From Eledone cirrhosa (Eukaryota), in assembly GCA_964016885.1 (NCBI GenBank), contig OZ024745.1, forward strand, positions 21,514,001 to 21,578,000: a stretch of DNA of 64,000 bases. The letters run 5' to 3'. This document shows positions 1 through 42,884 of the stretch, piece after piece; position 1 is the first letter of the stretch; every line of letters begins with the position of its first letter. The notes beneath the pieces are model-generated. The model was not told the DNA's origin, searched no databases, and saw only the letters and a list, made by a program, of their open reading frames with translations. Made by a program: the position numbers and the translations under genes.

Positions 1-207
1 AGCGTGTTTATGGCATCGATCCTATTCCTTGCATTCAATTCCGTTCTTAAGATTGCTCTTACTCTGCGGTAACATTCCTTCCTTATCCTTTCCCTCATTG
101 TCGAGTGCTTGATTCCGTCTCCTTCACAAACACCTAGATATTTGTAAGTTTTTTCTTGATCAAGTTCTCTTATCACGTTCCACCGATCAAGATTAATGTC
201 TGAACTC

Positions 208-208
<1 letters not shown>
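1..208 (-). mobile_element. 5'-truncated R4/Dong-like non-LTR retrotransposon fragment (RT thumb region), runs off the window
   Basis: Minus strand reads ...IRELDQEKTYKYLGVCEGDGIKHSTMRERIRKECYRRVRAILRTELNARNRIDAINT, homologous to the element at 6404-8060 (YKYLGV...EYLRRVRSVLKSHLNSRNAISAVN); its 5' junction abuts (ATT)n. Confidence 0.8.

Positions 209-280
<72 letters not shown>
209..280. repeat. (ATT)n microsatellite
   Basis: Direct reading. Confidence 0.97.
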
Positions 281-29160: not shown

Positions 29161-29175
29161 ATATATATATATAAT

Positions 29176-29463
29176 TAGAAACTCAAAATAGTCTCTTACA
29201 ATTAAAAAACTCAAGGAAAGAGATTTTTCCGAGCCGTATATTATAATTGAATATAAAAGAGAGATAAACACAGACATAAAGATGTATGTGTTCAAATCGT
29301 AAAGGACCAGATTCACTAAGGTGAAAAAGATACTAACTATTAACAATAGGGTTTGCCAGAGTTAATTTAAGAATAAATCAATTTAGCAAATCTGGTCCCT
29401 ACGATTTGAACACATACATGTATATGTATGTGTTTATCTCTCTTTTATATTCATTTATAATAT
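29176..29463 (-). mobile_element. Fold-back insertion of ribozyme family M in TA repeats
   Basis: Arms about 29238-29312/29389-29463; homologous to 42467-42672. Confidence 0.85.
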
Positions 29464-40266: not shown

Positions 40267-40561
40267 TAATTACATGTATGTTTATATCTGTGTTTATCTC
40301 TCTTATATATATATATATATATATATATAGTATTAAGGATACTATTTATGGTTATGCATATACTAAAACCTTTTATAGTTATATATATTTTAAACCCTAA
40401 ACAGTGAACAACAGTAATTTATTACTACCTTATTACCAGTAAGATAAATAGCTCAATGTAATAACATCAGTTGTTCTACAGAGCAGTTATATCGAAATCA
40501 CATGAATCAAAGTTCTATTCAAACCATTTATTAGCTTACAATATATATATATATTCTATGG

Positions 40562-40938
40562 TATTAAATAAATGGAAACTATATTTATAAAACCATATTT
40601 ATTTTATTATATATATTTCTAGGGTGCCAAGACAACATTGGTACGCTTTCATCAGATAAAATACAAAGTTTGTTTTATAAATAGAGACATACCCATGAAA
40701 ATCATACCTTATCGGTTGGAAATTCACTGGATAGTCTTTGTATTTTAACTGATGAAAGCGTACCAATGTTGTCTTGGTACCCTAGATATATATATAATAA
40801 AATAAATATGGGTTTATAAATATAGTTTCCATTTATTTAATATTATTGAATTTTTACTCCAGTAAACTGTTGAGTGCTCTAAATCAGTTTTAAACATGTA
40901 TATTTGTCGGACTTCCAACAAATTAAATACCCCTTCTA

Positions 40939-40972: not shown

Positions 40973-41095
40973 GGAGGTGAGTTTTATTGTAGTACAATAA
41001 AGCAATGCAGATATCGGATAAGAAGCACTCTACAGTTTGTGGGACTGGAGTATGCATAATATAAGATCAAAAGATGGTTAAAGGAGTTCCATATA

Positions 41096-41162
41096 TTTTA
41101 TTATGCGCATTTCAAAAACAAACATCATCAAACAATAATATTTGTGTTTTCATCAGATAAAA
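41096..41162 (-). ncRNA. Minimal type-I hammerhead ribozyme
   Basis: Reverse complement of 41254-41320. Confidence 0.87.
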
Positions 41163-41253
41163 CAGGAGAACATGATATTTAAATCAACATATATGTTGAT
41201 TTAAAACTGCACTATCAACAAGTGTTTTTTAGCCTTCATATCATGTTCTCCTG

Positions 41254-41320
41254 TTTTATCTGATGAAAACACAAATATTATTGTTTGATGATGTTTGTTT
41301 TTGAAATGCGCATAATAAAA
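41254..41320 (+). ncRNA. Minimal type-I hammerhead ribozyme
   Basis: TTTTAT-CTGATGA-AAACACAAATATTAT TGTTTG ATGATGTTTGTTTTT-GAAA-TGCGCA-TA-ATAAAA; palindromic stem III. Confidence 0.88.
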
Positions 41321-41356
41321 TATATGGAACTCCTTTAACCATCTTTTGATCTTATA

Positions 41357-42062
<706 letters not shown>

Positions 42063-42064
42063 TT

Positions 42065-42879
42065 TAAGAGAGAGATAAACACAGATATAAACTAGGGTGA
42101 AAAAAATACAATTAACAATATGGTTTGTCAGACTCAATTTAAAACAATAAATCAAGAAAAGAAATACAAACCTATATTGGGCAACTGCCGGAACACCCAG
42201 ACTGCTTATGGTAGGCAGTTTCGCAATTTTAGCGAAGATAATTACCAATTCTTTGCTCATCAGTGGGTGTAAAATTAGTAATCCCTTCACTTCTAAGCAT
42301 CTCAGAAGACTGAATAGTGTGTAAATATAAAATAACGCACATGACATCAGAACCTAGCATGTTACATAAACGTACGCTACTAAAAATAGCAGCCAAGTTT
42401 ACACGATATTTAAATTATCTCGACAAAAATTGAAGGAGCCGACTATATCAAAGGTATATATTGAGTTAGAAACTCAAAATAGTCTCTTACAATTAAATAG
42501 CTCAAAGAAAGAGGTTTTTCTGAGCCGTGTAATATAATTGAATACAAAAGAAAGATAAACACAGATATATACATACCTGTGTTCAAATCGTAAGGGACCA
42601 GATTCGCTAGGGTGAAAAAAATACTAACTATTCACAATGTGGTTTGCCAGACTCAATTTAAAATAATAAATCAAGAAAAATAAAAACAAACCTATATAGG
42701 GCAACTGCCGGAACACCCTAGCGAACTTGGTCCCTTACGATTTGGACACATGTATGTTTATATCTGTGTTTACCTCTCTTTTATATTCAATTATATTATA
42801 CGGCTCAGAAAAACCTTTTTCCTTGAGCTATTTAATTGTAAGAGACTATTTTGAGTTTCTAACTCAATATATACCTTTG

Positions 42880-42884
<5 letters not shown>
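42065..42884 (-). mobile_element. Ribozyme element family M: complete 520-nt unit, partial tandem copy and inverted arm
   Basis: GCAACTGCCGGAACACCC at 42181 and 42701; inverted arms about 42444-42614/42714-42884. Confidence 0.88.
42193..42270 (-). ncRNA. Canonical type-I hammerhead ribozyme
   Basis: ACACCCA-CTGATGA-GCAA...TTGC-GAAA-CTGCCT ACCATA AGCAG-TC-TGGGTGT; 7-bp stem I, GUC triplet. Confidence 0.92.

Follow-up and report, generated by a model that had tools for sequence, protein, structure and literature searches.

Metazoan non-LTR retrozymes (Cervera and de la Pena 2020, PMC7229834; Li, Clavereau, Pollet 2026, 10.64898/2026.07.22.740005) are described as non-coding units of low GC content, each with one type I hammerhead ribozyme, with head-to-tail joins and a proposed dependence on Penelope-like elements (PLEs). 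The repeat family of Eledone cirrhosa considered here is alike in all these respects. However, the typical unit in those accounts is about 300 nt, versus 520 nt here, and our family, which is known from DNA alone, consists mostly of dispersed copies of less than two units that carry an inverted arm.

Hammerheads also occur in the pseudo-LTRs (pLTRs) of PLEs, and their combination of a partial tandem, an inverted 5′-truncated copy and a tail (PMC4209133; PMC8557442; PMC3846280) recurs in our family. Microhomology at the joins, a tail at one end only and (TA)n targets like those of the Hydra and Naiad clades are further points of likeness. In contrast to these elements, ours has no ORF, and its tail measures 77-88 nt against the 30-40 bp published for PLEs. 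In the anole PLE Poseidon PAc (Frangieh et al. 2024, PMC11167929), as here, two internal start sites of reverse transcription downstream of the hammerhead define the genomic ends, the targets are AT-rich, and both strands are cut and extended. In vitro the hammerhead of the autonomous PAc could be dispensed with, and the published account of PAc describes no reads from the cut, whereas our family has a small excess of DNA ends just past it. A precedent for a ribozyme cut that defines the 5′ junction of a retroelement is R2 with its 5′ HDV-like ribozyme (PMC3774820). In Drosophila R2 the cut is described as the precise 5′ junction, whereas here most copies ignore the site, and both the ribozyme and the enzyme class are different. 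The in vivo role of PLE hammerheads has been called unclear (PMC8557442), and a literature search that reached the smaller part of the subscription papers brought up no paper that describes 5′ ends of genomic PLEs at the cut sites of hammerheads.

We analyzed a window of 64,000 nt (the whole stretch under study) on contig OZ024745.1. Unit position 0 is the first base 3′ of the predicted cut; negative positions lie upstream of it and positive ones downstream. The window contains the following features of the index locus and its surroundings:

42193..42270, minus strand: type I hammerhead with a 7-bp stem I, CUGAUGA core, long bulged stem II, GAAA and 5-bp stem III
42200..42718, minus strand: full repeat unit of 519 nt, or 520 when the base that follows the cut is counted
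42061..42199, minus strand: partial second unit, made of unit 0-112, a 36-nt deletion and about 148-175, with a degraded short outer end
42714..42884, plus strand: inverted arm, equal to unit 105-275 at 94%, ending at the long outer end of the family (275)
42714..42718, no strand given: CACCC/GGGTG microhomology at the head-to-head junction
41900..42054, plus strand: very high-copy SINE-like repeat (the SINE label is our reading) that adjoins the short end and lies outside the element
29164..29462, no strand given: second family copy in the window, comprising unit 45-264 (minus) and an inverted 110-189

The hammerhead and its predicted cut lie where the first-pass annotation had put them. On the minus strand CUGAUGA occupies 42263-42257, GAAA starts at 42222 and GUC is found at 42202-42200, so that GUC/U is predicted to be cut between 42200 and 42199. 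The annotated period of 520 nt was confirmed; the unit has a GC content of 33%, below the 45% that limits retrozymes, and is without a long ORF. Downstream of the ribozyme the second unit is 88% identical to the first and carries the 36-nt deletion. At the other end CACCC at 42714-42718 is common to the direct copy and the inverted arm, just as had been proposed for this join, and beyond the arm the locus continues as (TA)n and then (TG)n. The upstream copy was said to begin within 1 nt of the cut. Its alignment does extend through 42718 and misses only the first post-cut base (T at 42719 versus A at 42199), but with the 5-nt microhomology the join may lie at any point between 1 and 6 nt past the predicted cut. 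The unit had also been described as running from ribozyme to ribozyme, which has to be dropped: no second ribozyme was found upstream in the index locus, which holds one hammerhead, and a definition of retrozymes that requires two consecutive hammerheads does not cover it. The 520-nt monomer is real as a repeat unit, but with only one ribozyme at the locus its own transcript would be unable to release a monomer by double cleavage.

The second family copy in the window has one long and one short end and no ribozyme. In contigs from two runs of unknown type and one sample, the SINE-like repeat beside the index copy reaches a depth in millions, with loose ends at 42054. The 3′ end of a SINE-like repeat is joined to unit position about +52 to +55 in at least two loci, L021:2129 and L125:1389 (92.5% across the join), and probably also at G000:C1:261563552, which may reflect a target preference or a small chimeric family. 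Two further fold-back inserts with CUGAUGA, at 40540-40800 and 41050-41366, are apparently ends of other PLE-like families. By eye, and without a chance control, we also saw that unit 27-130 has intron-like signals on either strand. The plus strand, opposite the ribozyme, shows look-alikes of a donor, a branch point and an acceptor at 42591-42652, and the minus strand, which is that of the ribozyme, a donor with polypyrimidine-AG at 42692-42607.

The index copy has the conserved CUGANGA, GAAA and NUH with three stems that characterize a type I hammerhead. An Rfam search did not detect a hammerhead at the gathering threshold or at E up to 10, where it returned only hairpin-driven miRNA noise, and the unconstrained MFE structure (-20.5 kcal/mol) is not the hammerhead fold, which reaches -15.3 kcal/mol when constrained. 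Support for the motif comes from covariation. We compared 26 natural copies picked from 44 intact motifs selected by regular expression. In these, 95.9% of stem cells were paired, against 23-41% in slid controls, and double changes were found in 6 of the 17 pairs, three of them in stem I (21 cells versus 3.7 in shuffles). The stems covary across subfamilies, and the index copy itself carries a compensatory U-A pair in stem III. On this comparative evidence the hammerhead motif, core and stems alike, is under selection. As the copies are related and were chosen for an intact core, the covariation argues for the fold and not for activity. In contrast to the minimal dimeric hammerheads of PLEs, stem III here has 5-6 bp, so the ribozyme could work as a monomer, and stem II is of the long kind that Rfam misses. 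In one subfamily (L144, L168, L220, L229) CAGAAGA replaces CUGAUGA, stem I is fully compensated, and stem III has 6 bp.

The unit belongs to a large family, with 4,243 first-look candidates in the 3.0-Gb genome, 40 of which were scored, and 986 exact genomic matches to one degenerate 22-mer. On the ribozyme strand, outer ends lie at unit position about 187 (short) or 264-275 (long), mostly in (TA)n, while inner ends are scattered, which gives the partial tandems of variable 5′ truncation expected of PLEs. An inverted 5′-truncated copy adjoins the 5′ end, again as in PLEs, in 133 head-to-head insertions counted among the loci examined after five duplicate loci were dropped. Among these, 87 combine a long with a short end, one has two short ends, none has two long ends, and 45 have a non-canonical end; the rule of one short and one long end therefore holds in 87 of 88 classifiable insertions. 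The tail extension is confined to one end, and the 87 long-plus-short insertions match the one-end tail of PLEs (PMC8557442). The two outer ends likewise match the two adjacent internal start sites of reverse transcription reported in vitro (PMC11167929), and the rule is a clean genomic counterpart of such two-site internal priming. The length of the tail, 77-88 nt instead of 30-40 bp, is a point against regarding the element as a passenger of PLEs. The index locus is, in our reading, an old copy of this abundant, non-coding, PLE-mobilised and retrozyme-like element.

Could these copies be merely the 5′-truncated ends of an autonomous PLE with tandem pLTRs? Their structure is typical of PLEs, and a PLE-like RT/GIY-YIG frame of another family is present in the genome at L142. 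However, every long copy runs upstream of the ribozyme into the unit and then into the previous unit, and no copy linked to an ORF, including RT and GIY-YIG between pLTRs, was seen in the output listed for the 151 loci scanned; we consider this explanation very unlikely. A recurring alternative sequence upstream of the ribozyme was not seen by eye among the 100 matches listed of 190, and an autonomous PLE with the same terminal repeat appeared neither in the 151 loci nor among the 100 matches listed. For this reason the partner enzyme is only inferred.

The L142 frame (L142:1251-4565, G000:C1:181.96 Mb) is RT plus GIY-YIG-like, frameshifted and 5′-truncated, with a CxCx5C linker; it is bounded by a 385-nt inverted repeat in (TA)n and is Hydra-clade-like. 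Pfam gave 0 matches for its ORF, and an Atlas comparison led to HTH_animal/RVT_1 clusters. We rejected it as the parent of our element, as its terminal repeat is a different one of its own; at the level of sequence, it shows that RT/GIY-YIG-like enzymes exist in this genome, not which one is the partner. The insert at 40540-40800 of the window is 75% like the sequence adjoining the RT/GIY-YIG element.

We consider it likely that the index copy is an old non-coding hammerhead repeat which a Penelope-like retrotransposon enzyme inserted in trans into a TA microsatellite, in the form of two cDNA arms placed head to head. The enzyme would nick both target strands and prime two cDNAs at two internal sites on an RNA of more than unit length, either a circle or a linear multimer. 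The long cDNA would have passed one ribozyme site, gone on through a whole unit and ended 1-6 nt before the following site, while the short one would have stopped at unit 105-109, after which the two cDNA 3′ ends would have annealed via CACCC/GGGTG. A model with an antisense template, put forward for PLEs (PMC3846280), would alter this argument on polarity.

As the long cDNA crossed one ribozyme site, the template was not a linear monomer cut at both sites. A covalently closed 520-nt circle, as in retrozymes, would explain both the partial tandems and the read-through, and is compatible with either origin of the 5′ end discussed below; circles were proposed in PMC4209133 and, according to PMC7229834, have been shown for other animals. 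Tandem copies within an insertion have a median identity of 94.4% (41 pairs), close to that of arm and terminal copy (94.5%, 91 pairs) and far above the 86% between loci, and the arm shows no preference for the terminal copy (19 vs 16 vs 13 sites in 10 loci). Arrays of full units were absent from the 40 scored matches of the 4,243 candidates, and of 105 locus strands with a ribozyme, in a sample that favours long copies, 4 had two of them on the one strand. However, the identity of nearest neighbours at different loci is just as high (95.4%), and a linear multimer of homogeneous units would fit no less well. Folding of the sense strand is good in six copies (z -2.5 to -6.8), but z below -4 was also reached by 4 of 10 control stretches and the circular MFE is no better than the linear one, and we therefore set whole-unit folding aside as weak evidence for a circle. 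On balance, we regard the circle as a real but tentative possibility.

The junction of the index copy has been found at one other place in the genome:

42444..42800, no strand given: junction block, arm 187 to 105 plus unit 1-275, recurring at locus L042 (G000:C5:20.235 Mb)

L042 lies 1.3 Mb away on the same contig and is 97.8% identical over 358 nt to 42800-42444 of the window, across the inversion, while the next best locus reaches 90.6%. It shares rare variants with the index direct copy at unit 21, 80, 86 and 174 (family frequencies 5/85, 5/121, 2/106 and 2/168, respectively) and also carries the arm-type bases of the index arm; its own arm is only 91.6% like the direct copy. The outer ends of L042 are the canonical 187 and 275 sites, in (TA)n. 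Segmental duplication was rejected as its origin, since the flanks are unrelated and give no alignment, and L042 is not the parent of the index copy, because the index arm is longer. These comparisons suggest that the index junction block was probably copied again to L042 at a later time, which could have happened via RNA or by DNA-level copying. Junctions can therefore be re-copied, and a 5′ end at the cut site inherited. Three of four differences in the direct copy of L042 read A>G relative to the index copy, too few to claim ADAR editing.

Where, then, do the 5′ ends of the family lie relative to the cut? A probe at unit 68-98, which samples the subfamily of the index copy, gave 107 matches, 100 of them listed; 80 loci were fetched and 15 reused, and the window's own 29-kb copy was left out. 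From the resulting 99 rows we dropped the index copy, L079 (a duplicate of L078) and one side of L064, and three rows (L054, L095, L104) were corrected by hand. L078 and L079 (G000:C2:161.09 and 161.17 Mb) have identical junctions 81 kb apart and were counted once; a local or assembly duplication is likely. In the remaining 96 copies, 5′ ends occur all along the unit, at about 0.6% per nt; the cut region is reached by 69 copies, and 66 of them pass the site. The bin 0..+9 has 0.70% per nt, bins downstream of it 0.54-0.78, and the bin -80..-71 has 1.18. Read-through alone is no argument against cleavage; the template would be an uncut multimer or a re-ligated circle.

Four further pattern searches supplied upstream sequence for 365 of 1,283 matches, from which junction rows were picked by eye and mapped against 40 intact natural references. 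Loci selected on site or length (the 21-match set and the scored loci) were kept out of the peak statistics unless they also belonged to an unbiased sample. The curated table holds 73 junctions from -30 to +9, without the index copy, L042, seven internal deletions and four rows that were ambiguous or outside the range; some twelve positions in it were corrected by eye, and each of three palindromic loci contributes two junctions. In this table 36 junctions fall in the 10 nt of 0..+9 and 37 in the 30 nt of -30..-1, a roughly threefold difference in density (p 7e-6 to 9e-5). As a control we used an anchor that lies about 90 nt upstream of the cut and counted its ends by eye in other subfamilies: 4 of 100 were in its first 10 nt, compared with 24 of 165 (p 0.007). 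The excess is carried by the sample anchored at +10 (24 vs 17), whereas the remaining samples gave 12 vs 20 (p 0.08-0.16). There is thus a modest step of 5′ ends at the cut and no sharp single-base peak. Of four internal deletions with a downstream breakpoint at 0 to +3 of the cut (L181:551, L215, L158, L164), we note that they are possibly template jumps from a cut end; other deletions land elsewhere.

One explanation of the step is that the template's 5′ end was made by the ribozyme and the enzyme ran off it, with one base trimmed at the join. A position of +1 would suit the index join. Five independent copies have their start precisely on the first post-cut base (L114, L132, L175, L176, L223) and four at +1 (L040, L082, L133, L134), in three subfamilies together, while -1, -2 and -3 have 0, 1 and 0. 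The threefold density and the selection on core and stems also point this way. However, positions -4, +6 and +9 have five junctions each, positions 0/+1 are no denser than +2..+9 (p 0.28), and outside the +10-anchored sample 0/+1 accounts for only 2 of 32 junctions (p 0.48). In the probe sample, the bin -80..-71 exceeds the one past the cut. The same RNA would also have to keep an uncut or re-ligated site 520 nt downstream, and in the anole PLE cleavage was dispensable in vitro, with no RNA reads starting at the cut in the account given (PMC11167929). We hold a ribozyme-made end to be rather unlikely.

The excess may also have arisen with no cleavage at all, if reverse transcriptase stalled at the foot of stem I and at a small hairpin at +10..+19, aided by microhomology of the G-run. 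In agreement with this, 24 of the 36 junctions at 0..+9 lie at +4..+9, where the 3′ strand of stem I has its foot or has already ended; a further cluster is found at the 5′ foot of stem I, and +1..+5 can pair perfectly with CACCC at unit 105-109. However, the other 12 junctions, at 0..+3, are within the paired strand. We regard stalling as a tentative possibility. The step would be given by a few percent of cut templates with trimming of their ends, and equally by stalling at the stem I foot.

For the index copy itself, ordinary truncation fixed by microhomology is likely, and more so than run-off from a ribozyme-cut RNA end. The latter, estimated from the range of the excess, is doubtful; this judgement of a ribozyme-made end may be too severe, as the step is real both in the pooled data and against the control anchor. 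The first-pass annotation had taken the locus as genomic evidence of cleavage in vivo. A single locus is insufficient for this, the more so as its junction has been inherited elsewhere, and what persists is a hint at the level of the family. The family-wide comparison that it proposed, with randomly placed 5′ truncations as the opposing outcome, came out largely on the side of the latter: ends are scattered, most copies read through the site and no sharp peak exists, but there is the modest excess downstream of the cut.

A broader reading is that a few percent of insertions stem from freshly cut linear RNA and the rest from a 520-nt circle that had been re-ligated and was copied starting at either end of a DNA break, with finished fold-backs such as that of L042 transcribed and re-mobilised across their own junction. 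We consider this combination unlikely. The index locus by itself adds little. The thousands of junctions in the family, in subfamilies whose stems differ, make the in vivo role of a PLE hammerhead testable from DNA alone, and if the broader reading is true, the family would be a fossil record of a Penelope-type hammerhead at work in the germ line.
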